Origin: an uncultured Planctomycetales bacterium
Lineage (GTDB): Bacteria > Omnitrophota > Gorgyraeia > Zapsychrales > JBDRMG01
DNA: 64,000 nt
Direction: 5' to 3'
Assembly (NCBI GenBank): GCA_964478715.1
Contig: CAYZIY010000005.1
Span: 19,832-83,831, forward strand
Shown: positions 43,999 through 62,277 of the stretch, in pieces
Layout of the letters: each line of letters begins with the position of its first letter
Position numbering within the stretch: position 1 is the stretch's first letter
Translations under genes and position numbers: made by a program
Notes under the pieces: model-generated
Told to the model about the DNA's origin: nothing
Database searches by the model: none
Seen by the model: the letters and a program-made list of their open reading frames with translations, nothing else

Positions 43999-44084
43999 TG
44001 TATCTCACAACAGAGACAAACGCAATTTTTTTCAAAATGATGCTTTTTCTGTTAAAATACTCTACCAATCGAGGGGGTAATGAG

Positions 44085-44783
44085 ATGTTTACCTATTTGC
44101 TTATCAATCTGGCTACCGTGTTCATTCCCTTAGCACTTTCTTTTGAAAGCCGGATTCGGTATTTCAAGAAATGGAAATATGTGGCGGCATCAACAGCCAT
44201 TGTCGGATTTTTCTTTATTGTCTGGGACAGTTTTTTTACCCAATGGGGCGTTTGGGGATTTTCTCCTGCCTATTTGATCGGCATCACTTTTTTCCATCTG
44301 CCTTTAGAAGAGATCCTTTTTTTCTTTTGCGTTCCGTTTTCCTGTATTTTTATCTATGAGCTTGTCTGCCATTTTGATCGCGACGTTATCTTAAAATCTC
44401 TGGCACGTCCGTTAACTATAGGATTGGCAGTCGTTCTATTGATCTTGGGTTTTGTTTTTCTCCATAAAGTTTATACCTCGATCACTTTTCTTTTGCTCGC
44501 TTGGTTGCTTGTCATTCATTTTTTTCTCTTAAAGAAGGAGTATATAGCTCATTTTTATTTAGCCTATGCTATCAGCGTTATTCCTTTTTTACTTGTTAAC
44601 GGAGTTCTCACAAACGGTATAGGTTTTATTAGCAAGAATCCGGTTGTCTGGTATAACAACGCGCAGAATTTGGGACTGCGCTTGATGGGAATTCCTCTCG
44701 AAGATTTTTTCTATTCCTTGCTTCTTCTTTTAAGCAATATTACGATTTACGAATATTTTAAGGGAAGGGAATACAAAGCATGA
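44085..44783 (+). CDS. lycopene cyclase domain protein (two tandem CrtYcd-type domains)
   Basis: MFTYLLINLATVFIPLALSFESR start after the SD GAGGGGG. ~7 TM helices with a PLEE motif. Length fits a fused heterodimeric-type cyclase. The ORF-track start at 43998 is rejected. Confidence 0.6.
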   Translation: MFTYLLINLATVFIPLALSFESRIRYFKKWKYVAASTAIVGFFFIVWDSFFTQWGVWGFSPAYLIGITFFHLPLEEILFFFCVPFSCIFIYELVCHFDRDVILKSLARPLTIGLAVVLLILGFVFLHKVYTSITFLLLAWLLVIHFFLLKKEYIAHFYLAYAISVIPFLLVNGVLTNGIGFISKNPVVWYNNAQNLGLRLMGIPLEDFFYSLLLLLSNITIYEYFKGREYKA

Positions 44784-46809: not shown

Positions 46810-47379
46810 ATGCTTTATTGGTTGGCAAAACTTACTTCTTTTTGTTTTTTTAAGCTATTTTTTAATATTGAGCTAAAAGGGCAAGGAAAAATACCATCCA
46901 AAGGCCCGTTCATTTTAGCGGCCAATCATCTCAGTTATTTTGATCCCCCTCTTGTGGCAACATTTATCAGATGCAGGATATGTTTTCTGGCGAAAGAAGA
47001 ACTTTTTCGCAACTGGATTGGCCGGATATGTTTTTCACAACTCGGAGCGATTCCCTTAAAACGTCAGACGAATGATTTTAGGGCCATGCGTTTGGCTTTG
47101 GCATTATTGAACAAAAAGCCGCTTTTAATCTTTCCCCAGGGAGTGATCAAAGCCGCTTGGGATGATTTTCATGCGGGGGTCGGATTCTTAGCCCGACAAT
47201 CCTCGGTGCCCGTTATGGCGGCCCGCATTTATGGGGCACAACATATTCTTCCCCTTAGAGAGTGTTTCAGGCAAAAAAAGAAGATCAAAATTGTTTTTGA
47301 TTGGGTTGATAATATTCAGCCCGAAGATAACAATCAGATTATAGCCAACAAGGTCATGGAAAAAATCAAAAGCCTTTGA
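46810..47379 (+). CDS. plsC: 1-acyl-sn-glycerol-3-phosphate (lysophospholipid) acyltransferase
   Basis: HX4D motif AANHLSYFDPP and LLIFPQG. Its stop overlaps the start of the downstream megaprotein. Confidence 0.75.
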   Translation: MLYWLAKLTSFCFFKLFFNIELKGQGKIPSKGPFILAANHLSYFDPPLVATFIRCRICFLAKEELFRNWIGRICFSQLGAIPLKRQTNDFRAMRLALALLNKKPLLIFPQGVIKAAWDDFHAGVGFLARQSSVPVMAARIYGAQHILPLRECFRQKKKIKIVFDWVDNIQPEDNNQIIANKVMEKIKSL

Positions 47380-50300
47380 TGAAAATAACATTTGTTTATC
47401 CCCGTTTTGAGAAATTTCTCAGCAATAATCCTGAATTCGACCAGGGTGTGGTCGATTATTTTCTGGGGAATTTTACGACGCCGCCGTCTTTAGGCATTCC
47501 GATTATGGCATCCTGGACCCCGCCTGATATAGAAACCGAATTAGTGGATGACAATAGCGGAGACACCCTTGATTACAGCGCACCAACAGATTTGGTGGCT
47601 ATCAATTGTTTTACGCCTCAAGCCACGCGTGCTCTGGAGATTGCCGATGGCTATCGGGCTCATGGGAAAAAAGTAATTATGGGTGGATTTTTCCCTTCGT
47701 TTATGGTCGACGAATGTTTTCAATATGCGGATGCGGTTTGCGTCGGAGAGGTCGAACCAATTTGGGAATCTGTGATTGAAGATATGCGTTGTGGAGAGCT
47801 GAAGAAGAAATATGTTGGCGGATGCCGTTTCGATCTTTCCAAAATGCGTATCCCTAAGCGCGATATTTTTTATAATAAACATAATTATGACTGGGATGAA
47901 GACCTTGTCCAGATTACGCGCGGCTGTTCGTATAGCTGTGCGATGTGCGCGATCCCTGCTCATATGGGGCCGCGGATTCGCCTGCGTCCCATCGATCATG
48001 TTATCCAAGAGATCAAAACACTGAAATATGACAATGTATATCTGGCCGACGATGTGTTGTTTTTCCCGCAGAGAAGAATATATGATTATGTCACCCAACT
48101 CTTAGAAGCCCTTATCCCTTTAAATAAAAAATATTTTGTCAGCTCGACGATGGCGTTAAGAACTGATCCCAAGTTCCTGGATTTGGTCGCTAAAGCGGGC
48201 GTGCGCAATTTCTACTGCACCATGAACGTTGATCCCGTATCGATTAAGGCTATTCAAGGAGGAAAAAAGGAACAACAGATGCTCTGTGATCTGGTCAAAA
48301 ATATTGAAGAGCGCGGCATTCGTTTTTTTGGGTCTTTTGCGATCGGCCGCGATTGGGATGACACAAGCATTGCTGATCGTATTATTGATTTAAGCAACAA
48401 AGCTAATATCCGCACATCCGAATTCTTTTTGTTTACGCCGTATCCGGGTACCGTTCATTGGGAAAGGCTTGAGCGTCAGGGAAGAATTTTTGATCGCAAT
48501 TGGAGCCACTATAACGGTGCTCATGTAGTGGCCCATCATCCAACGCTTAGCGATGAACAGCTCTATGGTCAATTCGTGAAAATTTGGAAAGAGTTCTTTA
48601 AGAAAAATAAAGATCAGCATGCCGTGCATATGGCTCCCATTGAATATGAGGGAGGCAAAGTTGTCGCCGGTAAGCAGCTTCGAAAAAAGGGCATTAGAGG
48701 CCAAGCGGTGATCACCGGAGTCGGTTTTCTCAGTCCGATTGGCAGTGACAAAGAAACACTTCTGGATTCTTTGAAAAATGGTCGCCACGGCATTGCGCCA
48801 ATAACCAAATTTAACGCATCTCATTTTTCCACTAATCTTGGTGCGGAGATTAAAAATTTTGATCCCCAAGAATATTTGAGTGATTCTGAGCGTCGAGAAT
48901 ACGATGATGCCTATATCCAGTACGGAATTGTCGCTGCCCGTAAAGCCCTTCAGGACGCCGGTTTTCCGTTAGGAGAAGCCCCAAACAATCGCGACACAGC
49001 GATGGTTCTGGGAACTTGCAATGGCGGTCTCTTATCCGGAGAAAAAGAATACAGATGGATCCACGGCCAATCGGATGTTCCCTTTGATGAAAAGATGAAT
49101 TTGCTGGTTAAGTATTACGGATTCGGAAAGGCTATGGCGCATGCCCTAGGTATTGGCGGAGAATTATGGATGGTCACAACGGCGTGTTCTTCGACCACAG
49201 CAGCGATAGGGTTGGCTCACATGCTGATCCGCCGAGGATATTATAAAAAGGTTCTGGTCGGCGGATCGGATAGCTTAAGTTTGGCCAGCATGTCAGGATT
49301 TCATGGCCTGAAAGCACTCTCTTGTGGTCAGACTGCTCCGTTTTCTTTACCGGTTGGTTTAAACATCGGAGAAGCCGCTTGTTTTTGGGTTGTGGAAGAG
49401 ATGGAACATGCTTTGCTGCGGCATGCGCGTTGCTATGCAAAAATTGCCGGCCATGCCACTACCTCTGATGCCTATCATCCAACGGCTCCCGATCCTAGAG
49501 GGGATGGTGTATTTCGTACATTGTCCCGCGCTCTTAATCATGCCGGGATTGACTTAAACCATATCGGCTATATCAATGCGCACGGGACTGGAACGGAAGC
49601 CAATGACAGAGCGGAAAGCAAAGGAATTACTAAGTTTATAAACAATCACTCTATTCCTGCTGTTTCGCTGAAGTCATATTTTGCCCATTGCATGGGGGCA
49701 ACCGGCATTCTGGAGGCGACCTGCAGCCTTCTGGCTATGGAAGAAAACTTCATTCCGCCGACGATTAATTTTACACAAGGACGTCCGGGATGCACGCTTG
49801 ATTATGTTCCAAATAATTTTCGAAACAAAGAACACAAAGCCTTTATATCCGCCAATTATGCCTTTGGGGGTAATAATGCGGCGGCAGTTATAACCCAATG
49901 GAATTTTCCGACACCTCCTGTTACAAACAGCACCCAGCGGGTTGTGATTACCGGTGTGGGGGCCATTTCTTCTCTTGGCACGACCATGGAAGAAAATCTA
50001 ACAGCGTTACGCGAGGGTAAGCGTGGAATTGGCTCTATCAAACGATTGAACCTGAAGAATATGAAGTCCGAACTCGCCGGTTTGGTTCCAGAGTTCAACT
50101 CCCAAGACATCGATCGGCGTCTTGATTTTTCTCATATGAATCCGATCAGCAAATTTGCCACAGCAGCGGCCAAGCGGGCGCTTGATAATTCAGGTATCCG
50201 TGTGAGCAGAAGCAATGCCGATAAAATCGGTATTGCCATGGGCGTTTGCAGTGGGCCTTCAGAAGAGAGTCACATGAATAAACTGTTTACCAGCGGAAAA

Positions 50301-51155
50301 TATGAAGCAGATATCAGCTGTTTTTCTAACATCACGGCTAACTCTACGGCCGGCTGGGTGTCCAATGCTTTGTATTTAAAAGGCGTAAATATTTCTTTGG
50401 CGCCGGGTCATCATGCCGGTCTGCAGGCCTTGGCCTATGCTTTTGATGCGTTGGCAGAAGGTCAGGCCGATCAAATGGTGGTTGGTGCTGCTGAAGAGGT
50501 TTATCCTAATAATTATTGGAAATATGATCTGATCAATTATTTGTATACGGGCGAGCAGGAACATGACTACCGCCTGAGGTTAGACAATGCCAAACAAAAA
50601 GTGATCGGAGAAGGCGCTGGCATGATGGTTATGGAGCCGCTTCATATGGCCCAAAGCCGAGGGGCTCCCATCCTCGGAGAGGTGCTCGGCTATGGAATGT
50701 CTATGGATGGGGGGTCATTTCTTAAACAGAATCTGGATACGCACGGCTTACGCCATGCGTGTGAATTGGCAATACAAAGATCGAATAGTAAAGAGGACGA
50801 TATTGATCTGGTCGTCTGGGCTCCGCAAGGAAACGTTCAGGATAAGAAGGTGATGGATGTTTGCAAAGATATTTTCAAAGAGTGTTATGAACATGTGCCT
50901 TTGGTGACAACCACATTTCATACCGGATATATCGAAAGTGTTTCGATTATCCTTACGCTGGCGTGTGTTCTTTCGGCTATAAAGGAGGATTCTGATCTCT
51001 GGCCGCAAATAACCGGTATTAAGGAGATCGATCAAAAACCATTGAATAAAAAACCTCAGAATATTCTGGTTTTAGGCAGCAGTGATGTAGGATATAACTT
51101 TGCTGTTGTGATTAAACCCGATCCGTTCGATAAACTCCCATCGATTTCTGCATAA
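47376..51155 (+). CDS. tri-domain protein: B12-binding radical SAM domain + beta-ketoacyl synthase (KS) + KS-like chain-length-factor domain
   Basis: By manual count: aa 1-~430 is a B12-binding-like Rossmann region plus a radical SAM core, with C184x3C188x2C191 (GCSYSCAMC at nt 47925-47948). aa ~443-845 (nt ~48702-49910) is a KS with Cys604 (TTACSST), His736 (NAHGTGT) and His771 (FAHCMGATG). aa ~856-1259 (nt ~49941-51152) is a KS-like domain with GVCSGPS but lacking the HGTGT histidine, i.e. CLF-like. Confidence 0.75.
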   Translation: MMKITFVYPRFEKFLSNNPEFDQGVVDYFLGNFTTPPSLGIPIMASWTPPDIETELVDDNSGDTLDYSAPTDLVAINCFTPQATRALEIADGYRAHGKKVIMGGFFPSFMVDECFQYADAVCVGEVEPIWESVIEDMRCGELKKKYVGGCRFDLSKMRIPKRDIFYNKHNYDWDEDLVQITRGCSYSCAMCAIPAHMGPRIRLRPIDHVIQEIKTLKYDNVYLADDVLFFPQRRIYDYVTQLLEALIPLNKKYFVSSTMALRTDPKFLDLVAKAGVRNFYCTMNVDPVSIKAIQGGKKEQQMLCDLVKNIEERGIRFFGSFAIGRDWDDTSIADRIIDLSNKANIRTSEFFLFTPYPGTVHWERLERQGRIFDRNWSHYNGAHVVAHHPTLSDEQLYGQFVKIWKEFFKKNKDQHAVHMAPIEYEGGKVVAGKQLRKKGIRGQAVITGVGFLSPIGSDKETLLDSLKNGRHGIAPITKFNASHFSTNLGAEIKNFDPQEYLSDSERREYDDAYIQYGIVAARKALQDAGFPLGEAPNNRDTAMVLGTCNGGLLSGEKEYRWIHGQSDVPFDEKMNLLVKYYGFGKAMAHALGIGGELWMVTTACSSTTAAIGLAHMLIRRGYYKKVLVGGSDSLSLASMSGFHGLKALSCGQTAPFSLPVGLNIGEAACFWVVEEMEHALLRHARCYAKIAGHATTSDAYHPTAPDPRGDGVFRTLSRALNHAGIDLNHIGYINAHGTGTEANDRAESKGITKFINNHSIPAVSLKSYFAHCMGATGILEATCSLLAMEENFIPPTINFTQGRPGCTLDYVPNNFRNKEHKAFISANYAFGGNNAAAVITQWNFPTPPVTNSTQRVVITGVGAISSLGTTMEENLTALREGKRGIGSIKRLNLKNMKSELAGLVPEFNSQDIDRRLDFSHMNPISKFATAAAKRALDNSGIRVSRSNADKIGIAMGVCSGPSEESHMNKLFTSGKYEADISCFSNITANSTAGWVSNALYLKGVNISLAPGHHAGLQALAYAFDALAEGQADQMVVGAAEEVYPNNYWKYDLINYLYTGEQEHDYRLRLDNAKQKVIGEGAGMMVMEPLHMAQSRGAPILGEVLGYGMSMDGGSFLKQNLDTHGLRHACELAIQRSNSKEDDIDLVVWAPQGNVQDKKVMDVCKDIFKECYEHVPLVTTTFHTGYIESVSIILTLACVLSAIKEDSDLWPQITGIKEIDQKPLNKKPQNILVLGSSDVGYNFAVVIKPDPFDKLPSISA

Positions 51156-51214
51156 TTCTGTGCCATTCACCATTTTCTTGTTGAACCTGTAAACTATTGT
51201 TTTTTTGCATGTTT

Positions 51215-51226
51215 CGTGTATAATTT
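51215..51226 (+). promoter_or_regulatory. extended -10-like element (GTGTATAATT) upstream of the ACP gene
   Basis: TATAAT at 51219-51224 preceded by TG. Suggests an internal promoter separating the megaprotein from the ACP-fabG-fabD unit. Confidence 0.35.
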
Positions 51227-51245
51227 ATAAATTTGAAAGGAGAAA

Positions 51246-51569
51246 TTGACGGTTATGGACAGCGCGATGCAAAATGCTATAGAAAAACGGGCCCGCGTGA
51301 TCAATGCGATGAAAGAAGAGCTGATCAAGCGACTCAATTTGCCCTACACTCCAGAAGACATGCACGAAGATATTTCGCTTTTTGGGGCAGGACTTGGCCT
51401 TGATTCGCTGGATGCGCTTGAGGTCGTTTTATGCGTTGAGCATTGTTTTGGTATTAAAATTCCCGACCATAATGTGGCGATTTTACGTTCAATTAATACC
51501 CTGGCCGATTATGTCATAGAACAAAAAGAAAAGACGGAGATAGCCCATGAGAACGCTCCCGCTTCGTGA
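51246..51569 (+). CDS. acyl carrier protein
   Basis: GLGLDSLDALEVVLCVEHCFGIKIPD (phosphopantetheine Ser in DSL). ~80-100 aa. Confidence 0.8.
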   Translation: MTVMDSAMQNAIEKRARVINAMKEELIKRLNLPYTPEDMHEDISLFGAGLGLDSLDALEVVLCVEHCFGIKIPDHNVAILRSINTLADYVIEQKEKTEIAHENAPAS

Positions 51570-52653
51570 TCTTTTGGCCGCTCAAGGGGCCTCTTTTAAA
51601 GAACGTTATGGGATCGAAGTTCCAACTGTCATTAGTGATCCCAAAAAGGAATATCATTTGATCCGCGATACGGTAGGCATTACGGATTTTTCTTTTATGC
51701 AGAAATACCGCATCTCCGGAGATACGGGCGTTGACCTGCTCGATCAATTGTTTGCAGGCAATGTGGCCAAAATCCGTTTTTGTCGAGTTTTACATACATT
51801 TCTTGCAAATAAACAAGGACAGCTAGTTGTTGATGCCTACATCGCCAATAATGATGAAGAGTTTATTGTCTTATGTGAAAGCATTATCGATGATGCCGCT
51901 TGCAAGGATCTTTGCAGGCTTAATGGTGATTCTGGCGGTCTCGAGGATTTAACCGACAGTCACGTAGTTTTCAGCATTGACGGGTATGATGCCTGGAAGG
52001 TTGTCAAAGATCTTTTTGGCGCCGACGTGCTTGGCTTGCCGTATCTTTCCGTAGAAACATACCCATTTGAAGATAGCTCTGTTTTCTTATTTCGCGCCGG
52101 AAAGACTTCTGAATTTGGCTATCTGGCCATGGCCCCCAAAGCAATCGGTCCACAATTAATGAACGCTTTGACTACCGCAGCCAAGCAGCATGGCGGCGGG
52201 CTTTGCGGAAGCAATATCCATCACGACCTACGCCTAGAAGGCCGTTTTTTTAATATTTATGCTGAAGGAAAAAGAGTCAGAGATCCGCTACCCCTTGGCT
52301 TGCAATGGATGATTGATTTTGACAAGGAATCTTTTCTGGGTCATCAAGTGATTCGCGAAAAACGCAAACAAGGTTTGAAGAATAAAATCATCGGTGTAAA
52401 GATCGCCGCTTCCAGCGGGGCTCTTAAGGTCGCAGATCCCGTTTTTGACCAAGAACAACAAGTAGCTTCCGTTGAAGCAGCATGCTTTTCCTATGTCCTT
52501 AATGCCCATGTCGGTTTGGCCTTGTTTCCTTTTTCTATGGCTTATGCCGGTTTAGCATTCCATCTCGGAAAGCCCGGTGGCCCCCGTCTTGATACCATTT
52601 CTATGCCTCCGATTATGCCCAAAAGTTTAAGCGTTAAGCTTGATGAAATGTAA
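51547..52653 (+). CDS. GcvT-family (aminomethyltransferase/YgfZ-like) folate-binding protein
   Basis: The collinear pattern TLPLRDLLAAQGASF...DFSFMQKYRISG...GYLAMAP...GLCGSNIHHDLRLEGRFF...PLPLGLQWMIDFDKESFLGHQVI...KIIGVKI matches the GcvT fold. Overlaps the ACP stop by 23 nt. Confidence 0.6.
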   Translation: MRTLPLRDLLAAQGASFKERYGIEVPTVISDPKKEYHLIRDTVGITDFSFMQKYRISGDTGVDLLDQLFAGNVAKIRFCRVLHTFLANKQGQLVVDAYIANNDEEFIVLCESIIDDAACKDLCRLNGDSGGLEDLTDSHVVFSIDGYDAWKVVKDLFGADVLGLPYLSVETYPFEDSSVFLFRAGKTSEFGYLAMAPKAIGPQLMNALTTAAKQHGGGLCGSNIHHDLRLEGRFFNIYAEGKRVRDPLPLGLQWMIDFDKESFLGHQVIREKRKQGLKNKIIGVKIAASSGALKVADPVFDQEQQVASVEAACFSYVLNAHVGLALFPFSMAYAGLAFHLGKPGGPRLDTISMPPIMPKSLSVKLDEM

Positions 52654-53123
52654 TGAGTGTTCAGGATCTAAACAGTTCAGAAGGCCGATTAATCAAACGC
52701 AAAATGAGAATCACGCCAAAACTGTATGAACTTGATATGCAGGGGGTGGTGTATAATGGTCACTATTTTAAATGGTTTGATCAAGCGCGCTTTGAAATCA
52801 TTTTGGAAATGATCTCTATTGATGAGATTCTTCAAACTGGTCTAACATTTATGATTTCGGAAAATCATTGTGAATATAAAAATTATGTGAGCTACGGTGA
52901 ACCTTTAGTGCTGCATACGTCGCATCGTATTCAGCCTGTGTATCAGGGCCGGTTGACTTTTCAACATTCGATTATGCATGAAAAAAAGAAGACCGAAATT
53001 GCCAGCGGCTATTCCAATCTGATTGTTGTGAATCAGAAAACAAAACAGCTGATTAAGGAAATGCCTGATTTTATCTGGCAAAGATATATCCATCTGCAAT
53101 CCAGCGGTGAACATGTCATTTGA
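52653..53123 (+). CDS. hotdog-fold acyl-CoA/ACP thioesterase (YbgC/4HBT-like)
   Basis: MQGVVYNGHYFKWFDQARFEIILEM matches the 4HBT pattern. ~150 aa. Confidence 0.6.
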   Translation: MSVQDLNSSEGRLIKRKMRITPKLYELDMQGVVYNGHYFKWFDQARFEIILEMISIDEILQTGLTFMISENHCEYKNYVSYGEPLVLHTSHRIQPVYQGRLTFQHSIMHEKKKTEIASGYSNLIVVNQKTKQLIKEMPDFIWQRYIHLQSSGEHVI

Positions 53124-53850
53124 TCATAAAGTTGTTGTTGTAACCGGCGGATCCAGAGGGATCGGTAAGGCTATCGTCGAGGCCTTCTGCGCACATAAGG
53201 CAAAGGTTTATTTCACATATCACAAAGATGAACAAGCGGCACAGGATCTAACAAATTCTTGCAAAGCTGTTGCCATCAAGTGCTCCCAAACGGATCTTGA
53301 GAGCATTGAAAAGACCGTAGAGTCCATCATTAAAGAGAATCAGTCGATCGATATTTTGATTAATAATGCCGGTATTACGTCAGATCAATTTCTGATGATG
53401 ATGACCTTTGATCAATGGGAAAAGGTCATTAATACCAATCTGCACGGGGCTTATCGTTGGGCCAAGATTGTGGGCCGGTCGATGTTGGCTGAGAGAAAAG
53501 GGGTTATGATCAATATCGCCAGTGTAGCCGGTTTGGTAGGCATTGCAGGGCAATCCAATTACGCAGCCAGCAAAGGAGGACTATTGGCCTTTACACGATC
53601 TATGGCTGCTGAGTTTGGACCCAGGGGTATTCGCGTGAATGCCGTTGTTCCCGGTTTTATCGAAACAGATATGACAGCCAAAATGTTCCGTCAGATTAAG
53701 CGACAAAACATCGAGAAAATTCTCCTGAAACGTTTCGGCAAACCCGAAGAAGTGGCCCAGGCGGTTCTGTTCTTATCCTCAGAAGGGGCCTCGTATATCA
53801 TTGGCCAATCTATCATTGTCGACGGTGGATTATCGGCCGTAGCAATCTAA
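53107..53850 (+). CDS. fabG: 3-oxoacyl-[ACP] reductase (SDR)
   Basis: VVVVTGGSRGIGKAI, NNAGIT, and the catalytic YAASKGG. Confidence 0.85.
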   Translation: MNMSFDHKVVVVTGGSRGIGKAIVEAFCAHKAKVYFTYHKDEQAAQDLTNSCKAVAIKCSQTDLESIEKTVESIIKENQSIDILINNAGITSDQFLMMMTFDQWEKVINTNLHGAYRWAKIVGRSMLAERKGVMINIASVAGLVGIAGQSNYAASKGGLLAFTRSMAAEFGPRGIRVNAVVPGFIETDMTAKMFRQIKRQNIEKILLKRFGKPEEVAQAVLFLSSEGASYIIGQSIIVDGGLSAVAI

Positions 53851-53852
53851 TT

Positions 53853-54806
53853 ATGAACAAAATAGTTTTTTTATTTCCCGGACAGGGATCCCAAGAGGTT
53901 GGTATGGGGCGGGATCTGTTTAAACAGGATGATGATTTCCGTGCGCTTATCAATGAAGCCAGCCAGCAAGCCGGGGAAGACCTTGAGCTTATCTGCTTAA
54001 GAGGACCGGCAAAAAAATTAGTGAGGCCGTCTTTGCTCCAGCCTTTACTTGTGGCGGTTAGCCTCGGGTATTTACGTCATGTCATAAGGAAAAATATTAT
54101 TCCTGATTTTGTGCTGGGGCATTCTTTGGGTGAAATCACGGCATTAGTTGCGGCCGGTATCATTGATGACCGCTTGGCTATTTCCATAGCCACCAAACGT
54201 GGCCAGTTGATGGATGAGGCAGCTACCGTCTGTGAAGGCGGCATGATGGCGATATTAGCAGTCGCCCCTGATAAAATTCAAGGCATCATAGATGACCTTG
54301 GTCTTGACAATCAAATAGTGATTGCGAATTATAATACGCTGGATCAGACGGTGCTGAGCGGTAAGCGATCTGCTTTTGATCAGTTGGTTGCGGAAATTCA
54401 TAAAGCCGGAGGAAAATGTAAGAAACTCAATGTCGCCGGGCCATGGCACAGCCCCTACATGCAAAACGCGTACGAACAGTTTCGCATATGGGTTGAGCCT
54501 TTGACATTCCAGTCACCCCAAATGCCCGTTATTCTTGATGGCACAGGCCAAGCAGAATCAGACCCCATTGTTATCAAACAGGCCATCACATCGAGCCTTA
54601 TTAATCCTGTTCAGTTTAGAAAATGCATGGAATATTGTCATGCGCAGTCCGTTAAGACCTTCCTTGAGATTGGACCGGGGCGGGTTTTGTCCGGACTGGT
54701 ACGCGCCAATGGATTTGAGGACACAACCCGCATCTACAAGGTCAATAATTACCGCGGTGTAGAATTGGTGGCCTCTGAATTATCTTCACAACCGCAATCC
54801 GCTTAG
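53853..54806 (+). CDS. fabD: malonyl-CoA:ACP transacylase
   Basis: FLFPGQGSQEVGMG and GHSLGEITALVAAG (active-site Ser). Confidence 0.85.
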   Translation: MNKIVFLFPGQGSQEVGMGRDLFKQDDDFRALINEASQQAGEDLELICLRGPAKKLVRPSLLQPLLVAVSLGYLRHVIRKNIIPDFVLGHSLGEITALVAAGIIDDRLAISIATKRGQLMDEAATVCEGGMMAILAVAPDKIQGIIDDLGLDNQIVIANYNTLDQTVLSGKRSAFDQLVAEIHKAGGKCKKLNVAGPWHSPYMQNAYEQFRIWVEPLTFQSPQMPVILDGTGQAESDPIVIKQAITSSLINPVQFRKCMEYCHAQSVKTFLEIGPGRVLSGLVRANGFEDTTRIYKVNNYRGVELVASELSSQPQSA

Positions 54807-54808
54807 AA

Positions 54809-55894
54809 TTAATCACAAGGTAGAGGGAAGTATTTATCGAGTCGGGAGAAAAGCATTTTGTCTCCTTGAATAACGAGCTTCTGATCCTTAAGCGCATTGC
54901 GCGCGTCGAGCTCTCGTAGGAAAATCTGTGACCACACATCACTCGTGGTGGTTATGCGCAGATGATAATCCTCCGATAGGCATTCTTTGACCGTACATTT
55001 TCCTTTATTGATTGTAATCGTAAAATGGATATTTCTATCAGTAAAATCAAATTGAACAGATGCTTTGATACGGGCTGTGGCTTGGGAATCAATGTGCCGG
55101 ACCATTTCGCTGATCAGAATGTAAGGATTTTTAAGAACATGGTTGTTGACGGAATTTGGATCCATAGCCTGCTTGCCTAGCGCTTGTGCTTCCTGCCAAT
55201 AAATGTTGGAATCCTCTAGAAAATGGGAAACATTTTCAGAAAGAGGCACACTGACATTGTTTATTATTGATTGTGAGATCTTACCCTGTGTCGCAAGCTC
55301 GGTGCCCGCGGTTCTAAAAGAAGACATTACAGTTCGAATCGTCTTGGGCTTTAAATAGGTAAATGGCAGCAGATAGGATTCACCGCGGATCAAGCCGCCA
55401 GCTAAAGGTAGGTTTAATCCTTCGGAAAAGAGTTCAAGCGTTTTACGGGCTCCTTCAAACGTATCTAAACCACGGAATGCCCCCACCAGGATATAGGCCA
55501 TTTTTTGTGGCCATTTTTTAGGATTGCGGATGGCGTTACGAATCTTATCTTGACCAGCGGGCAGATGCACATTTTTCATATAGGGCAATAAACGATCAAA
55601 GAATACTTTCAATGTGCCGCTGATACTGTAGATATATAAGGGTGTGGAGAAAACAACAATGTCGGCTTGTGTGAATGTTCCCATAGCAGAGGTCATATCA
55701 TCCTTATAAACGCATTGCCCGGGAGTTATCAGCCAACAATGATAACAACCCTTACAGGGATTGATTCTTTTGGTCGTTAAATCAATCTCTTGAACGTTGG
55801 CATTGCCTTGTTTCAGGCCTTCGATAAACAGATCGGTTAGCTGTTGGGTGTGGCCGTTTTTTCTGGGATTAGCGCGGATGATCAGGGCGTTCAT
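54809..55894 (-). CDS. flavodoxin-like NAD(P)H-dependent FMN reductase fused to SCP2-like lipid-binding domain
   Basis: N-terminal MNALIIRANPRKNGHTQQLTD...CKGCYHCW...VVFSTPLYIYSISGTLKVFFDR (iron-sulfur flavoprotein-like). C-terminal ~100 aa with SCP2-like NALKDQKLVIQGDKMLF. Confidence 0.55.
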   Translation of the reverse strand: MNALIIRANPRKNGHTQQLTDLFIEGLKQGNANVQEIDLTTKRINPCKGCYHCWLITPGQCVYKDDMTSAMGTFTQADIVVFSTPLYIYSISGTLKVFFDRLLPYMKNVHLPAGQDKIRNAIRNPKKWPQKMAYILVGAFRGLDTFEGARKTLELFSEGLNLPLAGGLIRGESYLLPFTYLKPKTIRTVMSSFRTAGTELATQGKISQSIINNVSVPLSENVSHFLEDSNIYWQEAQALGKQAMDPNSVNNHVLKNPYILISEMVRHIDSQATARIKASVQFDFTDRNIHFTITINKGKCTVKECLSEDYHLRITTTSDVWSQIFLRELDARNALKDQKLVIQGDKMLFSRLDKYFPLPCD

Positions 55895-56361
55895 AGCGTT
55901 CCTTCTACAGCTGCAAGAGTCAGGATACCTTTAGCAACGATTTTACGGCCAACGGTGGCTTCAACAGTGTAACTATAAAGCTGTTCAAATTGTTCACGAG
56001 TTTCCGAAATCAATTCAAGTGTTTCTCCCGGAAAAGCAGGGGAGGTGAATTTGACATTAGATGAGGCCAAGTAGAATATCTTGGGGGGTTCTTGCTGATT
56101 GCTGGGGATGGCTTTTTTACTGAAGCCTAAGAGCAACCCACTTGTTTGGGCTAAGGCATCCAGCACTAAGGCTCCGGGCATAATCGCTTTTTGCGGAAAA
56201 TGACCCTTAAACCATGGCTCATCTTCACGGATGAATCTTTCAGCAATGATAAGGTGATCCGGTTTGAATTTAATGACTCGATCAACAAAAAGAAAAGGAG
56301 GGCGATGGGGGATAATATCGAGGATCTCTTCTAATCTGAATAATGTATTTTTTTTCATCAT
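55891..56361 (-). CDS. fabZ: 3-hydroxyacyl-[ACP] dehydratase
   Basis: IIPHRPPFLFVDRVIKFKP...EPWFKGHFPQKAIMPGALVLDALAQ (catalytic His/Glu context). Confidence 0.85.
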   Translation of the reverse strand: MMKKNTLFRLEEILDIIPHRPPFLFVDRVIKFKPDHLIIAERFIREDEPWFKGHFPQKAIMPGALVLDALAQTSGLLLGFSKKAIPSNQQEPPKIFYLASSNVKFTSPAFPGETLELISETREQFEQLYSYTVEATVGRKIVAKGILTLAAVEGTL

Positions 56362-56415
56362 GAAGTATTTTCGATAAAGACTTCTAAAAAAAATATAGCC
56401 GATACATTGAGGAAG

Positions 56416-57243
56416 TTAATGGGAGCCAGCAGCATTCTTAACTGGATCAGAAGAAAAGGATGAAGTAAAATTCTCGACGGTAGTCAAGATATGGGCTGAT
56501 CCCCGACCAGACTCCAGTCCTTCATATTTCAACCAGACACGAGGCTTATCTTTACTATACCACAACAAAGTCGGCGGCACAAATTGGTCAACAATGGCAT
56601 TGAGAAAACCCATATCGGTATTTATTTTGATTTGCACAGTTTCTATTTTTTGTGATTCAACCATGATAGAGTCTTCTTTAAGTAATTCGGCTTTTAACTT
56701 ATAGAGACCTGGTTCGCTGCTGACAAAATGAAAACGTATCGTTTCTCCAGCTATCAAATCATCAAGAAAAGGTTTTAAAAAATAAATAAGGGTGGCATAA
56801 TCTGTTGTGCGCTCCTTTAGAGGCAAAGATTGTTGTTCGATTATGTTCATATTCTCGTCCAAGCGTCTGATATGGATAATCTTATCTTGATAATCGTAAT
56901 CATTTTTAAGAGTGGAGATAATCCGATTTTCTCTATTTCTAATTGTAAAGAGAGTATAAAGTGGACAAAGAAGATCTTCTCTGCTTTCTGTTTGGGATTC
57001 AAGCTTCCAGCTTATATCGTTGAATGATCCGTAATTTCCCAGACCAGCTTCCTTAAGGACAAAGCGATCATTACTTAGATGCTTAAAATTTCCATCAAGG
57101 CGAGAGCGCATGACCTTGGTCTTTTTGTCGATTGATATTTGTTGATACGTTTCGACTTCAGGCCAAAGGAATTGGCCTAAGCATGGGCTGCAGCAGGAAA
57201 GGATTCCTAAGACAATGGCTGATTGGCGAATAAGCCTTTTCAT
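56416..57243 (-). CDS. secreted hypothetical protein (paralog A of 62274-63107)
   Basis: Signal peptide. Shares the blocks YDYQDKII and L/IDDVLDQFVKPT..WY..........WLKYEG with the paralog. Confidence 0.5.
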   Translation of the reverse strand: MKRLIRQSAIVLGILSCCSPCLGQFLWPEVETYQQISIDKKTKVMRSRLDGNFKHLSNDRFVLKEAGLGNYGSFNDISWKLESQTESREDLLCPLYTLFTIRNRENRIISTLKNDYDYQDKIIHIRRLDENMNIIEQQSLPLKERTTDYATLIYFLKPFLDDLIAGETIRFHFVSSEPGLYKLKAELLKEDSIMVESQKIETVQIKINTDMGFLNAIVDQFVPPTLLWYSKDKPRVWLKYEGLESGRGSAHILTTVENFTSSFSSDPVKNAAGSH

Positions 57244-57818
57244 TAACGGTTTTCAGAAGAAAGAAATTGTTGATAAAAATCGTCAATTTTTCCTGGCAAT
57301 ACGTCGTCTTTTAAATCACTGTGATAAAGGCCAAGAGTCGGGATATCTTCACGTGGTTTCTGAAAAATAAGCTCGACTGTTTGAGCGATAGCGTTTTCGA
57401 TTCCGGTTAAATGCGCGGTGCCAAAGACGCCAACGTGCTTGTCAGAGATATCATTGGCATCGATATAAGTGCGCACCGCCGGAGTGACATTGCTCCACCA
57501 GCCGGGGGTGCCGATAAGAATAATATCATAATCCTGCGGATCGCATTGAAGCGATTTCAGTTCAGTTAAGTTACCGGCCACTGCATCTTTACCGGCCCGC
57601 ATAAAGGCGATCGGGCCGGTTCTCTTTGTTTGATCAATCAATTCTTCTAAATCTGCATTAAACTTTTCGGATAAACGTTGGGCCACTTTCTTCGTGTGTC
57701 CGTCACGGGAATAAAAAACAACCAACGTTTTGGATATTTCCTGTGCCGGGCATGTTATTGGGAGATTCATTAAAAATGCAGCCACAATGAAAAGAGTAAT
57801 TACGAGTCTTTTAAACAT
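57243..57818 (-). CDS. flavodoxin-family protein with N-terminal signal peptide/anchor
   Basis: MFKRLVITLFIVAAFLMNLPITCPAQE, then TLVVFYSRDGHTKKVAQRL...DIILIGTPGWW. Paralogous to the protein at 40328-40819. Confidence 0.6.
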   Translation of the reverse strand: MFKRLVITLFIVAAFLMNLPITCPAQEISKTLVVFYSRDGHTKKVAQRLSEKFNADLEELIDQTKRTGPIAFMRAGKDAVAGNLTELKSLQCDPQDYDIILIGTPGWWSNVTPAVRTYIDANDISDKHVGVFGTAHLTGIENAIAQTVELIFQKPREDIPTLGLYHSDLKDDVLPGKIDDFYQQFLSSENR

Positions 57819-57835
57819 AGCTTTTGCGCTCCTTT

Positions 57836-58570
57836 TTATGCCAATTGACCTTGATAAAGAGTGGCAATGCCACCTGTTAAAGATTGTGCCCGAATATTTG
57901 TAAGTCCATAGTGATCCATGATCGCTAAAATCCTTTTTGGCGGCGGAAATTCACAAATGGTTCTGGCTAGATAATCAAAGGCCCTGCGGTCTTTCAAGAA
58001 GAGACGGCTAACCGCAGGCATAATCTTTATCAGATAGAACAAATAGATCTTTTTAAGAATTTTATTGTTTGGAAGAGAAAATTCAAGGATTTTCATTTGC
58101 CCGCCTCTTTTCAAAACACGAACCATTTCACAAACAGCTTTCTCAATGGAGTGTTCATTCCTTAAACCGAAGGTATTAACTACCACATCGAATGATTGAT
58201 CTTGAAACGGCATCGAGAGTCCGTTGGCCCGAAATATCTTAATTCGATCAGAGAGACCATGAGATTTAATCCGGCGATAAGATTTTTGAAGCATACCATC
58301 AGAGATATCCACGGCGACCAGTCGGCTTTGCGGATGCTCTTTAGCAAAGGCGATGGTGGTTTCGGATGTGCCCGCGCAAACGTCACAAACCAGGGGAGCG
58401 TTTGGCATAGTATAAGATTGAACCAGAAATCTGATCCAGTTCCGATGAATGGAGGCTGAAAAAAGTGAGTTTAAAAAATCATAACGAAAGGCAATCGAAT
58501 CAAAAAGTTTTTCCGTTTTATTGTGATTCACTGTCATTGTATTATCTTTTGTATTTCTTAAGATGGACAT
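57836..58570 (-). CDS. class I SAM-dependent methyltransferase (UbiE/MenG family)
   Basis: FDSIAFRYDFLNSLFSASIHRNWI (UbiE N-terminal motif) and the SAM-binding VCDVCAGTSETT. Confidence 0.7.
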   Translation of the reverse strand: MSILRNTKDNTMTVNHNKTEKLFDSIAFRYDFLNSLFSASIHRNWIRFLVQSYTMPNAPLVCDVCAGTSETTIAFAKEHPQSRLVAVDISDGMLQKSYRRIKSHGLSDRIKIFRANGLSMPFQDQSFDVVVNTFGLRNEHSIEKAVCEMVRVLKRGGQMKILEFSLPNNKILKKIYLFYLIKIMPAVSRLFLKDRRAFDYLARTICEFPPPKRILAIMDHYGLTNIRAQSLTGGIATLYQGQLA

Positions 58571-58578
58571 GATCTAAT

Positions 58579-59781
58579 TTATCCATGAACTTGCTTGTAT
58601 TTTGAGACGGATGACAAAGTATCCATCCGGTGAAATTTATCGATGATTTTTTTACGCACTTTTTGATGCCACCCAAAAGGCAAGCGAATAGAAAATATTC
58701 TAATACACACCCTTAAAAGAAACTTGCAAATAGGGCCCGGATGAAAGCCTCTGATGAGAGTAATTTGTTTGAGAATGGGCTTTAAAGATCGACGATATCT
58801 TTCTGCCAAATTGGGAGCATCTTCAAGCAGACATTGAGCGGCTATTTGACCTGTTTTCATGGCATAATAAATCCCTTCACCGGTTAGCTGCCTGACCGCC
58901 CCGAGGGCGTCTCCACATAAAAGAATATCCTCATGGCCAAACTGTCTAGCAACAGCCACCGGACAGCAGGCTCCGCTCAATCTCTTTTTCTCAAATTCAG
59001 CAGGGATTAGATTTTGAGTGAGGGCATATTGAAGAAACTCATCCAGCATTTGATGAAGAGGTTGGCGTGTTTCTCCGATCAAGCCCATTCCCAGGGCATA
59101 GCCATCAGGATTGGGGAAAATCCAGCTGAAACCAAGTTCGTTTTGCCAATTTAAGAAAACAGAGGTTGAGCCCTGTCCCACATGAGCACATTTCAGATCA
59201 TATTGGATACAGCGGCCGTAATCAGTGCGGCGAGCAGGTCGGTTCCCCAAAAAGCGGCTCACGACACTCCCAAAACCGTCGGCTCCGATGATCTTGCGCG
59301 CATAATAGGTTTTTTCTCTGCCTCTTAGGCGGTAGATGCTTTCTTTGTCTTTGATAAGTCTATCAATTTCTCTGATCCGACATGTCTCAAAGCGAACTTG
59401 AGGAGACTGTAATGCAATTTTGACAAGCGCATGATCGAAATCGAAGCGGTCAACGACATCAAAAATATGGATATCGGGCGTATGATAAAAATAGGCTTCA
59501 TTGCAATAAAAATGAAAGTCATAACAGGAAAAAGCCGGCAGTTCATTTTGAATGAGGCGGAAATTTTCAAATTCAAGCGGCCAATCCTCGACGAAAAATA
59601 ATCCGCCGGCACAACATTTTTGACGCGGAAAATCATGGGCATCAACAATAAGGATATTTTTGCGGGGGTCTTTACCTAAATAATACGCGGCTATAGATCC
59701 TCCTGGACCTGCGCCGACAATCATCACATCGTAGATTTGAGAATCGGTAATCCGCGGATCCAAGAAGTTTTTAGTGTCCAT
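58579..59781 (-). CDS. geranylgeranyl reductase-family FAD-dependent oxidoreductase
   Basis: YDVMIVGAGPGGSIAAYYLGKD and FPRQKCCAGGL (GGR RxKxCGGG-type motif). Confidence 0.65.
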   Translation of the reverse strand: MDTKNFLDPRITDSQIYDVMIVGAGPGGSIAAYYLGKDPRKNILIVDAHDFPRQKCCAGGLFFVEDWPLEFENFRLIQNELPAFSCYDFHFYCNEAYFYHTPDIHIFDVVDRFDFDHALVKIALQSPQVRFETCRIREIDRLIKDKESIYRLRGREKTYYARKIIGADGFGSVVSRFLGNRPARRTDYGRCIQYDLKCAHVGQGSTSVFLNWQNELGFSWIFPNPDGYALGMGLIGETRQPLHQMLDEFLQYALTQNLIPAEFEKKRLSGACCPVAVARQFGHEDILLCGDALGAVRQLTGEGIYYAMKTGQIAAQCLLEDAPNLAERYRRSLKPILKQITLIRGFHPGPICKFLLRVCIRIFSIRLPFGWHQKVRKKIIDKFHRMDTLSSVSKYKQVHG

Positions 59782-60918: not shown

Positions 60919-62277
60919 ATGAAATCGATCGATCAAAGAAGAACACGTCTAGTTAAAAAGGGGGATAAGCAGCCTGGACCGGTAGTTTATTGGATGAGCA
61001 GGGATCAGCGAAGGGATGATAATTGGGCCCTGATCTTTGCTCAACAGACGGCCTTAAAAGAGAAGAGACCATTGATGGTTGTGTTTTGTCTGGTTCCTGA
61101 GTTTCTAAGCGCTACGATCAGGCAGTACGGATTTATGCTTAAAGGGCTAGAGCAGCTCGAGCAGGAGTTGACAAAAAAGAATATATCGTTTATTTGTCTG
61201 TGTGGTGAGCCTGAAAAAGAAATTCCGCATTATGTGAACAAAAACAAGAGCAGTGTCTTGGTGACAGATTTTGATCCTTTACAGATTAAAAGAAAATGGA
61301 AAGATGCTCTCAAAAAGAAGATCACAATTCCTTTTTATGAGGTCGATGCCCATAATCTTGTTCCCTGCTGGCTGGCCAGCGACAAACAGGAATTTGGCGC
61401 TTATACCATTCGCCCAAAAATTCACCGAGTGCTTAATGAATATCTTCAGGATTTTCCGAAGGTACAAAAACATCCGCATTCCGCAAGCCCGGCGACAACA
61501 AAGACTAAATGGAAAAGCTTGGGTAAAAAGTTGTGCATAAATAGAGCGGTTAAAGAAGTCAGTTGGATCAACCCAGGTGAGAAAAAAGCCCTAAAAATGC
61601 TGAAAGAATTTATTCACAAGAAGCTCAACCATTATGATGATCAGCGAAACGATCCCAATCAAGACGGCCAATCCGATCTCTCGCCGTATTTACATTTTGG
61701 ACAACTGAGCGCTCAGAGAGTGGCCTTAAGTGTCATGGCAGCTAAAGTGAATGAGCAAAGCAAGCAGGCTTTTTTGGAAGAGTTGATTGTCCGACGGGAA
61801 TTGTCTGATAATTTTTGCTATTATAATAAGGATTATGATTCGACCGATGGCTTTCCGCAATGGGCGAAGAAAACGATCAAAACGCATGCAAAAGATAAGC
61901 GCGCTTTCCTCTATTCTTTAAATCAGATGGAAAGCGCGCAAACACACGACGATCTATGGAATGCCGCGCAGATGGAGATGGTCAAGACAGGAAAGATGCA
62001 CGGATACATGCGTATGTATTGGGCCAAGAAGATTCTGGAATGGACTTCCTCGGTGAAGCAGGCCATGAAAGCCGCCATTTTTCTAAATGATAAATATGAA
62101 CTCGACGGTCGGGATCCCAATGGGTATGCAGGCATCGCCTGGTCGATCGGCGGTGTTCATGATCGCGCTTGGGGTGAGCGCGCTGTTTTTGGAAAGATAC
62201 GATACATGAGCTATCATGGCTGTCAATCAAAATTTGATATTAAGAAATATATCAAAAGAAATCAGCCTAGCCACTAG
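60919..62277 (+). CDS. phr: class II deoxyribodipyrimidine (CPD) photolyase
   Basis: GPVVYWMSRDQRRDDNWAL N-terminal signature. FAD-binding C-terminal region DLWNAAQMEMVKTGKMHGYMRMYWAKKILEW...NDKYELDGRDPNGYAGIAWSIGGVHDRAW. Confidence 0.85.
   Translation: MKSIDQRRTRLVKKGDKQPGPVVYWMSRDQRRDDNWALIFAQQTALKEKRPLMVVFCLVPEFLSATIRQYGFMLKGLEQLEQELTKKNISFICLCGEPEKEIPHYVNKNKSSVLVTDFDPLQIKRKWKDALKKKITIPFYEVDAHNLVPCWLASDKQEFGAYTIRPKIHRVLNEYLQDFPKVQKHPHSASPATTKTKWKSLGKKLCINRAVKEVSWINPGEKKALKMLKEFIHKKLNHYDDQRNDPNQDGQSDLSPYLHFGQLSAQRVALSVMAAKVNEQSKQAFLEELIVRRELSDNFCYYNKDYDSTDGFPQWAKKTIKTHAKDKRAFLYSLNQMESAQTHDDLWNAAQMEMVKTGKMHGYMRMYWAKKILEWTSSVKQAMKAAIFLNDKYELDGRDPNGYAGIAWSIGGVHDRAWGERAVFGKIRYMSYHGCQSKFDIKKYIKRNQPSH

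Follow-up and report, generated by a model that had tools for sequence, protein, structure and literature searches.

Gene content and layout of the locus

We have analysed a locus at positions 46810-59781 of the window, i.e., the whole 64-kb stretch of contig CAYZIY010000005.1 from an uncultured Omnitrophota bacterium. The locus is built around one large protein, in which a radical S-adenosylmethionine (SAM) domain (rSAM) is fused to a ketosynthase (KS) and to a chain-length-factor (CLF)-like KS. An earlier note, made from the sequence alone, had described it as a self-contained, non-canonical locus resembling a type II fatty-acid synthase (FAS-II). This description is supported by the domains, the residues and the synteny, while the overall interpretation given there appears to be right in outline and over-specific in detail.

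The genes were identified from a listing of open reading frames (ORFs) together with Pfam and NCBIfam profile searches, and the three sources agree on all the genes that had been listed for 46810-59781. Those of the lipid cluster, with the domains of the fusion, are given here, and the four genes to their right are given in the last section.

46810..47379 (+): LPLAT/PlsC-like acyltransferase, 189 aa (PF01553, 63 bits)
47376/47379-51155 (+): rSAM-KS-CLF fusion, 1258/1259 aa (Pfam, motifs)
47379..48620 (+): radical-SAM domain, fusion residues ~2-415 (PF04055, 39.7 bits)
48702..49904 (+): active KS domain, fusion residues 443-843 (PF00109/PF02801)
49926..51152 (+): CLF-like KS domain, fusion residues 851-1259 (active-site Cys replaced by Asn)
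51255..51569 (+): acyl carrier protein (ACP), 104 aa (PF00550, DSL phosphopantetheine site)
51547..52653 (+): GcvT-like protein, predicted folate-dependent one-carbon (C1) transferase (PF01571, 111 bits)
52653..53123 (+): hotdog (4HBT/YbgC-type) thioesterase (PF13279/PF03061)
53107..53850 (+): FabG-type 3-ketoacyl-ACP reductase (TIGR01830, 279 bits)
53853..54806 (+): FabD-type malonyl-CoA:ACP transacylase (TIGR00128, 229 bits; GHSLG motif)
54809..55894 (-): FMN_red domain fused to an SCP2 lipid-binding domain (PF03358, 61 bits; PF02036)
55891..56361 (-): FabZ-like 3-hydroxyacyl-ACP dehydratase (PF07977; PRK00006, 115.8 bits)

The layout is tightly packed and convergent, as had been claimed. 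The two arms meet with a spacing of 2 bp at 54806/54809, the stop codon of the LPLAT gene and the ATG of the fusion share 1 nt, and the ACP and GcvT-like genes overlap by 23 nt. The ACP ORF opens with a TTG at 51246, but the start is probably the ATG at 51255, because a ribosome-binding site (AAAGGAG, 51236-51242) and a public gene call of 104 aa both favour it. The earlier note had also placed this dedicated ACP behind a TATAAT element of its own. Both the ACP and the hexamer ahead of its gene do exist, but a scan of 43.5-60.5 kb gave promoter and terminator counts at or under the expectation from shuffled sequence (30 promoter-like sites seen versus 35.7 expected), and therefore no weight can be put on the hexamer. 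Rfam scans of the window and of six related loci for cobalamin, tetrahydrofolate (THF) and SAM riboswitches gave only tRNAs.

The fusion protein and its conserved partners

The fusion consists of three parts, namely a Rossmann subdomain with the radical-SAM barrel, a KS, and a second KS-like domain. Residue conservation was read from an alignment of 116 full-length homologs, where the CX3CX2C motif (C184/C188/C191) and the KS catalytic residues Cys604/His701/His736 are invariant (116/116 in both cases). The KS shows the motifs 'TTACSS', 'DAYH' and 'NAHGTG', and the CLF half keeps 'ITANSTAGW', in which Asn replaces the active-site Cys, again in 116/116 homologs. The elements of a KS/CLF system in the style of type II polyketide synthases (PKS) are thus all present, i.e., a Cys-His-His KS, a Cys-less KS homolog and a dedicated ACP, with the pair fused rather than encoded by two genes.

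As references we have used the aryl-polyene (APE) cluster of E. coli CFT073 and the E. coli fab operon. Against these, the KS shows 33% identity with E. coli FabF, 31% with ApeR and 28.5% with ApeO. In the PDB search, FabFs and the anammox amxFabF2 (9s5h_B) match the KS about equally, and the CLF appears as a degenerate FabF-like domain that is not specifically amx-like. The FabF model TIGR03150 gives the fusion 477.6 bits, summed over the two KS domains, versus a cutoff of 493.75, and the PfaA model gives 85 bits versus 1010. One metagenomic contig (L037) carries a split form, in which the gene for a 443-aa rSAM protein (P0122, 55% identical) precedes one for KS-CLF alone (48% identical). In Chitinivibrionales/Chitinispirillaceae loci, L012 and L028, a second KS-CLF ORF of ~760 aa lies between the fusion and the ACP; in the six loci examined its KS retains Cys-His-His, and the Cys of its CLF is replaced by Asn or Ser. 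The Victivallales locus L021 has a similar KS protein of 764 aa.

More than 100 full-length homologs of the fusion, with 59-80% identity, are known only as proteins of metagenome-assembled genomes (MAGs), annotated as Omnitrophota, Chitinivibrionales/Chitinispirillaceae or 'Fibrobacter sp.'. From a scan of 185,579 species genomes (species representatives), we have obtained 30 fusion loci, which belong to Omnitrophota, Fibrobacterota, Verrucomicrobiota/Victivallales and one MAG labelled Planctomycetales; across these groups the fusion keeps 55-80% identity. Such a small number fits an accessory rather than a housekeeping system.

Synteny was derived from tblastn and clustering of predicted ORFs, and was counted over the loci with a downstream flank (20) or with room for the gene (19). 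The ACP is kept in 20/20 loci, the GcvT-like gene in 19/19, always directly after the ACP gene, and FabG in 19/19. Therefore, the strictly conserved module is the rSAM-KS-CLF fusion plus ACP, GcvT-like protein and ketoreductase (KR). The dehydratase (DH; FabZ, 13/20), the malonyl transferase (FabD, 12/20), the thioesterase (10/20), the flavoprotein (FMN_red-SCP2, 10/20) and the acyltransferase, which recurs at varying positions, are frequent companions but not universal. The same LPLAT gene lies upstream of the fusion in the Omnitrophota loci L001, L002 and L027, while other phyla have a longer LPLAT elsewhere in the cluster. With the gene set found again in 20 independent loci that span several phyla, the locus is more than a chance assembly, and the possibility allowed for in the earlier note, that it is split and unconserved in relatives, does not hold.

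In five loci of one Fibrobacterota clade (L013, L017, L019, L020 and L026, labelled 'Fibrobacter sp.', Fibrobacteres or Chitinispirillum sp.), an APE module directly joins the core, within the 10 kb upstream of the fusion. This module has an ApeE-like ACP (51% identity to ApeE), ApeG (39%), the ligase ApeH (28%), the GT2/acyltransferase ApeJ (34%), the exporter ApeM (25%), an ApeO-like KS (36%), an ApeQ-like KR (53%) and an aromatic ammonia-lyase. The combination of the rSAM-KS-CLF core with an APE module is a previously undescribed hybrid cluster. It also qualifies the statement that no ammonia-lyase, AMP-ligase or MMPL exporter is present, which is true of the window but not of these five loci, where such genes stand beside the same core. 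A match to ApeC is likewise absent among the window proteins.

In two loci (L012, 10282-12099; L028, 19534-21021) we have also observed, inside the cluster, a 605-aa protein that fuses a FeeM-like N-acyl-amino-acid-synthase/GNAT domain to a class I/II aminotransferase. This fusion hints at an amino-lipid end product in those lineages.

As for the rSAM domain, its sequence points to an N-terminal Rossmann, B12-binding-like subdomain before the CX3CX2C [4Fe-4S]/SAM motif. PF04055 is matched above its cutoff, while the B12-binding model PF02310 reaches 26.9 bits versus 32.1 on the window protein; the domain is listed for most homologs, and the GG motif is invariant. No named NCBIfam family is reached by the domain (best: TIGR04013 57, HpnJ 52 and TIGR04072 41.4 bits; cutoffs 251-578). 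For TIGR04072, the 'lipid biosynthesis B12-binding/radical SAM protein', the cutoff is 360, and the relatives of the domain score 44-86 bits. An exhaustive search of representatives gave ~890 proteins at E<1e-30, mostly stand-alone proteins of 430-450 aa with 30-55% identity, and none of the ten tested falls in a named family. The domain falls into no housekeeping or named family, and its relatives recur beside ACP and lipid genes; both observations agree with the interpretation in the earlier note.

The AlphaFold2 (AF2) model of the domain has a pLDDT of 91.4. Among PDB structures compared with this model by Foldseek, the 1,2-diol dehydratase AprD4 comes first (TM 0.74), then the cobalamin enzymes MgmA, TsrM, CysS and OxsB, and then MiaB/RimO. 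Of these, CysS is a radical-SAM enzyme that has been crystallised with pantetheinylated substrates. AprD4 has a Rossmann-like domain yet no bound cobalamin (PMC12931638). With PF02310 under its cutoff and this enzyme as the nearest fold, the label 'B12-radical SAM' given in the earlier note is not established. AprD4-like dehydration/rearrangement or C-C coupling would be as compatible with the modelled fold as methylation.

Only two of the contexts of rSAM relatives are informative, those of P0122 and P0129. P0129 (38% identical; L044, 2828-5623) is fused to a phytoene-desaturase/amine-oxidase-like flavoprotein domain and adjoins an ACP, a lipid-A-type acyltransferase and a second desaturase homolog. 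The rSAM clade is therefore linked in part, though not in all its members, to lipid loci that depend on an ACP. P0125, a stand-alone paralog (41% identical; L033, 10001-11317) in the same Fibrobacterota MAG as the fusion locus L005, lies among genes of unknown function in a non-lipid context, so the clade has also diversified into non-lipid contexts. The relative P0124 is found in a context of multiple rSAM genes resembling those for ribosomally synthesised and post-translationally modified peptides (RiPPs), and P0126 lies beside an amine oxidase and SHMT.

Two further arrangements around rSAM genes can be mentioned. In L036 (6139-9284), an rSAM relative lies directly beside a phytoene-desaturase/amine-oxidase-like flavoprotein, and this arrangement, like that of P0129, recalls the pair of phytoene desaturase and rSAM in the anammox cluster. 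In the Victivallales loci L021 (7619-10684) and L018 (2019-5117), two enoyl-CoA hydratase genes and a second rSAM gene lie upstream of the fusion. This second rSAM protein is clearly positive for the B12 domain (PF02310, 53-78 bits), and a homolog of it is also present in the Omnitrophota locus L011 (140-1702).

Among the partners of the fusion, the window ACP is 39% identical to E. coli ApeE, nearer than to AcpP, and is not specifically amx-like. The GcvT-like protein has the full-length GCV_T fold (PF01571, 111 bits), and a profile of it finds the T-proteins 1woo/1yx2 as the closest PDB entries (137 bits). Its D96, E189 and R229 are invariant and aligned with T-protein Asp, Glu and Arg, which we take to be the catalytic Asp and the folate-binding Glu/Arg. 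The protein fails the models for bona fide GcvT (TIGR00528, 105 versus 235.85; PRK00389, 119 versus 300), and there is no gcvH or gcvP near its gene. Members of this subfamily share 56-74% identity, are as conserved as the fusion, and occur on the same contigs.

The enzymes of the elongation cycle resemble those of ordinary FAS-II, mostly at scores just short of equivalog level. FabG scores 279 bits with TIGR01830, just under the cutoff of 297.75, and is 41% identical to E. coli FabG versus 32% to ApeQ, while FabD (34% to E. coli FabD) reaches 229 bits versus 260.9 with TIGR00128. The thioesterase is 21% identical to ApeK, and the LPLAT protein is below the cutoff of TIGR00530. FabZ passes PRK00006 (115.8 versus 113) and stays under TIGR01750 (113 versus 155). 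Its best PDB matches are the anammox amxFabZ structures (100 bits, versus 87 for canonical FabZ), and it has an invariant His/Asp pair, with Asp where canonical FabZ has Glu. The motif 'GHFP...DALAQT.G' is kept across 12 FabZ homologs. The hallmark of amxFabZ is a Gly-to-Ile change (Ile69) in the substrate tunnel (PMC10139942), and at the corresponding position all 12 family members have Gly. FabZ is also 25% identical to ApeI, and precomputed Pfam annotation gives ApeI/ApeP-like matches on it.

In the FMN_red-SCP2 protein, a CX2CX2CX7C motif typical of iron-sulfur flavoproteins is invariant in nine homologs and is probably an Isf-type [4Fe-4S] site. The best solved relative of its flavin mononucleotide (FMN) domain is the flavone ene-reductase FLR of gut bacteria (7D38; E 1.6e-13 over this domain), and the protein is accordingly named here as a candidate enoyl/ene-reductase or low-potential electron donor. 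Pfam, NCBIfam and paralog searches found no FabH, FabI, FabK, FabL or FabV in the locus or elsewhere in the 64-kb window, nor any paralog of the FAS genes outside the locus. From these comparisons, the core enzymes are divergent FAS-II paralogs and not orthologs of the APE or the anammox ladderane proteins.

Proposed pathway and competing explanations

Among secondary type II FAS/PKS clusters, to which the APE and 'ladderane' kinds belong, the locus is a previously undescribed variant that is shared across phyla. In the literature we have found no description of an rSAM-KS-CLF fusion, or of a GcvT association with such clusters. We consider, with a probability of roughly 0.55, that it encodes a dedicated dissociated (type II) FAS/PKS-like synthase, in which a chain on a private ACP is radically modified while it is being built, with folate-linked C1 chemistry. 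The product is most likely an unusual, radically modified lipid chain.

In this pathway, FabD would load malonate onto the private ACP. The KS-CLF didomain would act as an intramolecular KS/CLF pair, where the Cys-His-His KS elongates the chain and the Asn-bearing CLF half probably decarboxylates malonyl-ACP for priming and sets the chain length. These activities are assigned by analogy with the KS/CLF pairs of type II PKS and with the anammox amxFabF heterodimer, and the conservation of the residues concerned is observed. For the anammox KS/CLF heterodimer, decarboxylation of malonyl-ACP has been reported (bioRxiv 10.64898/2026.05.19.726425). FabG and then the His/Asp FabZ would yield enoyl-ACP. 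Since no canonical enoyl reductase is encoded and the nearest solved relative is an FMN ene-reductase, the FMN/[4Fe-4S]-SCP2 protein, where present, would be the likeliest C=C reductase, and/or it may donate electrons.

The rSAM domain, tethered to KS-CLF by fusion in at least 116 proteins and encoded by an adjacent gene in L037, may attack an ACP- or KS-bound intermediate during elongation, and the GcvT-like protein may supply or remove a C1 unit via THF. The version that we prefer is, speculatively, the delivery of a methyl or methylene group for C-methylation of the chain, possibly via cobalamin on the Rossmann subdomain, with low-potential electrons perhaps given by the flavoproteins; this version unites the three components that are foreign to FAS. 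At last, the thioesterase would free the product, or the LPLAT-type acyltransferase would move it into a membrane lipid.

Partial precedents exist for both unusual features. CysS and Jaw5 (of the jawsamycin PKS; treated in PMC13459092) are radical SAM enzymes that act on pantetheine- or carrier-bound substrates, iteratively or during chain growth. They differ from the fusion in that neither has a known KS fusion, Jaw5 is HemN-like and cobalamin-dependent methylation is proven for CysS, whereas the top fold match of the window domain is the cobalamin-free dehydratase AprD4. PfaC-type synthases of polyunsaturated fatty acids likewise have KS and CLF in a single polypeptide of a secondary-lipid synthase, but the locus has no tandem DH or multi-ACP domains, and its sequence is nearer to FabF than to Pfa.

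On the other hand, several observations weigh against the pathway as proposed. In sequence, ordinary FabF, FabG and FabD are the nearest relatives of the core enzymes. Enzymes of the GcvT family usually move C1 units to THF and do not donate them. The FMN-SCP2 protein is absent from half of the loci, including the Omnitrophota loci L003 and L011, so it is not an obligatory enoyl reductase. The use of cobalamin by the rSAM domain is doubtful, judging from the sub-threshold PF02310 match and from the modelled fold, whose closest relative is cobalamin-free, and methylation is only one option, AprD4 being a dehydratase. In addition, the contexts of the nearest stand-alone rSAM relatives are unrelated or RiPP-like. 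No cultured host turned up among the homologs of the fusion.

Among the competing explanations, it is rather unlikely that the product is a pigment of the aryl-polyene type, where KS/CLF, KR and DH would give a conjugated polyene, which the rSAM domain would tailor and the acyltransferase would fix in the outer membrane. APE/flexirubin-type clusters resemble the locus in having KS/CLF, KR and DH without a classical enoyl reductase, a 4HBT thioesterase, an LPLAT and an exported beta-barrel protein. The missing canonical enoyl reductase, the ApeI/ApeP-like matches on FabZ, an ACP nearer to ApeE than to AcpP, the true APE orthologs and ammonia-lyase joined to the core in five Fibrobacterota loci, and the photoprotection-like neighbourhood of carotenoid genes and photolyase that the cluster abuts all speak in its favour. 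However, the KS, KR and DH of the window are nearer to FabF, FabG and FabZ than to ApeO, ApeQ and ApeI/P, its proteins are not Ape orthologs (ApeO 28%, ApeQ 32%), and aryl-starter genes and an exporter are lacking. As the annotated E. coli CFT073 cluster shows, APE clusters have no radical-SAM, GcvT-like or FMN-SCP2 gene. The window encodes an ene-reductase-like FMN-SCP2 protein, which is also present in the APE-linked loci. As the Fibrobacterota APE module has its own KS, KR and ACP, the two modules may be mere neighbours or may make two halves of a lipid. A ladderane-type pathway, in which, following the proposal for anammox Cluster I, the rSAM domain would cyclise or cross-link an unsaturated chain by C-C bonds such as those of rings or membrane-spanning links, seems very unlikely to us, in spite of a parallel in architecture. 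Both the locus and the anammox Clusters I/III (Kuste3603-3608; Kuste2803-2805) have an active KS with a dead KS as KS/CLF, a private ACP, a special FabZ whose best solved relatives are the amxFabZ structures, and an rSAM protein with a B12-like domain. Moreover, antiSMASH has been reported to call 'ladderane' clusters in MAGs of the same phyla (Fibrobacterota, Verrucomicrobiota, Omnitrophota and Planctomycetota; PMC9902471), some of which may correspond to the present cluster. Yet the rSAM, KS and CLF of the locus form one polypeptide whose rSAM part falls outside TIGR04072 (41 bits versus 360), FabZ is without the Ile69-type hallmark, CLF and ACP are not specifically amx-like, and GcvT-like and FMN-SCP2 proteins are added. 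There is no phytoene-desaturase homolog in the conserved core either, the CrtI-family gene at 40816-42303 being part of the non-conserved carotenoid set. Finally, the hosts are not anammox bacteria, from which alone, to our knowledge, ladderanes are known.

It is less plausible still than the polyene that the locus is simply the main fatty-acid synthase with a minor rSAM/GcvT add-on, or that the GcvT-like protein is a YgfZ-type factor for Fe-S maintenance of the rSAM domain, and we regard both as quite improbable. The locus does share the enzyme families and the cycle logic of FAS-II and is closest to the E. coli FAS-II proteins in sequence (FabF 33%, FabG 41%, FabD 34%); its core lies just under the equivalog cutoffs of FabF, FabG and FabD, FabZ passes PRK00006, and the 64-kb window has no other FAS genes. 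Against this stand the absence of FabH and FabI/K/L/V, a KS with no more than 33% identity to FabF, joined to a dead KS and an rSAM domain in one chain, a FabZ with Asp instead of Glu, an obligate GcvT-like partner, and the patchy, accessory-like distribution. As for the YgfZ-type variant, the GcvT-fold protein YgfZ supports the radical-SAM enzyme MiaB, and MiaB/RimO are among the structural neighbours of the rSAM domain. We have judged it the less likely role, as the KGCYxGQE signature of YgfZ is absent while the catalytic Asp and the folate Glu/Arg of T-proteins are kept, and in every locus the gene stays coupled to that of the ACP. The least probable explanation, to which we attach very little credence, is a small non-lipid metabolite released from the KS/CLF machinery after one or few extensions, as in cispentacin biosynthesis. 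Sub-threshold NCBIfam matches to AmcF (260 bits, cutoff 325), AmcB and AmcE (57 bits) and the preference of amxFabZ-like dehydratases for C6-C8 substrates agree with it; the SCP2 lipid-binding domain, the LPLAT acyltransferases, the exported DUF3108 protein with its weak LolA-like fold matches, and a conserved core without adenylation or amino-acid-handling enzymes do not.

Returning to the modified-lipid synthase, radical-SAM action on fatty-acyl chains is almost unknown, and the ladderane pathway is still unsolved. For such non-isoprenoid chains, a 2026 review names only ladderanes and jawsamycin (PMC13459092). The physical welding of rSAM to KS/CLF argues for modification during chain growth. 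We know of no lipid or polyketide pathway that uses a co-inherited folate enzyme. The hosts, i.e., Omnitrophota, Fibrobacterota and Victivallales, are abundant uncultured anaerobes, and in such MAGs, what automated annotation labels 'ladderane' or 'aryl-polyene' may conceal at least one distinct, unnamed cluster family. The core of ~9-11 kb is small enough for heterologous expression.

A more ambitious version, which we advance only tentatively and think rather improbable as a whole, is that rSAM-KS-CLF with the ACP and GcvT-like protein provides an oxygen-independent route to modified membrane lipids. It would comprise radical C-C/C-H chemistry by the rSAM domain during KS extension, folate C1 units instead of or besides SAM, and methyl-branched, cyclised or cross-linked chains. 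If true, the cluster would become a candidate for the origin of orphan sedimentary lipid biomarkers, and the fusion would serve as a natural 'Rosetta stone' in support of an elongation-coupled model for ladderane-type biosynthesis.

Peripheral genes and flanks

To the right of FabZ, four more genes continue the minus-strand arm:

56416..57243 (-): exported, beta-rich 275-aa protein of the DUF3108 type (PF11306 in homologs)
57243..57818 (-): Flavodoxin_4 protein (PF12682)
57836..58570 (-): UbiE/MenG-family methyltransferase (TIGR01934, 198 bits)
58579..59781 (-): geranylgeranyl-reductase (GGR)-family flavoprotein (TIGR02032, 150 bits)

The earlier note had counted UbiE and GGR as members of the locus, and this assignment is downgraded here. 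The UbiE protein is well supported as such (198 bits, above the TIGR01934 cutoff of 158) but lies beside the fusion in only one other locus, L011 (46% identity). GGR, just under its cutoff (150 versus 158.8) and the first gene of the minus-strand string, has no homolog in 30 related loci. As conservation with the core is lacking and isoprenoid genes are found on the opposite side, the simpler reading is that the two genes belong to isoprenoid/quinone metabolism and, in this one genome, share an operon-like string with FabZ, though they could still be genome-specific tailoring enzymes.

The isoprenoid genes on the other flank, which had been overlooked, form, just upstream, a carotenoid/isoprenoid set at 40328-44783, whose members are a flavodoxin_4 paralog, a CrtI-family phytoene desaturase (40816-42303; 426 bits with TIGR02734), IspH/LytB (-), a phytoene/presqualene synthase (-) and a lycopene-cyclase-domain protein. 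None of these carotenoid genes was found near the fusion in other genomes. The left boundary at 46810 is affected too, as it cuts an apparently co-directional string of overlapping genes that starts at 43998 (two lycopene-cyclase domains) and runs through 44780 (TPR) and 45631 (Pyr_redox_2) into the PlsC-like gene.

Downstream of the locus lie a class II photolyase (60919-62277; TIGR00591, 666 bits) and a GT2 glycosyltransferase, and the photolyase and DNA polymerase IV (DinB, 35235-36407) bracket the region. Together with the carotenoid genes, these annotations suggest a light/UV-protection neighbourhood in this Omnitrophota genome.

The Flavodoxin_4 protein has a hydrophobic, signal-like N-terminus (signal peptides in the locus being predicted from the amino acid sequence), which its paralog at 40328-40819 lacks. 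It adjoins the fusion cluster, at differing positions, in L003, L009, L011 and L027, all Omnitrophota. Also restricted to Omnitrophota is the 275-aa exported protein, which lies beside the cluster in L009, L011 and L027. The window copy has no Pfam match, while some of its 11 homologs carry PF11306; its AF2 model has a pLDDT of 66 and gives only weak LolA/LprG/DUF1849-like matches. A paralogous exported DUF3108-like protein, 30% identical to it, is encoded 5 kb away at 62274-63107 (-), next to the GT2 glycosyltransferase (63127-63798). Finally, a membrane protein of the TspO/MBR family adjoins the cluster in two Omnitrophota loci, L003 (8905-9375) and L011 (18065-18550, 160 bits).

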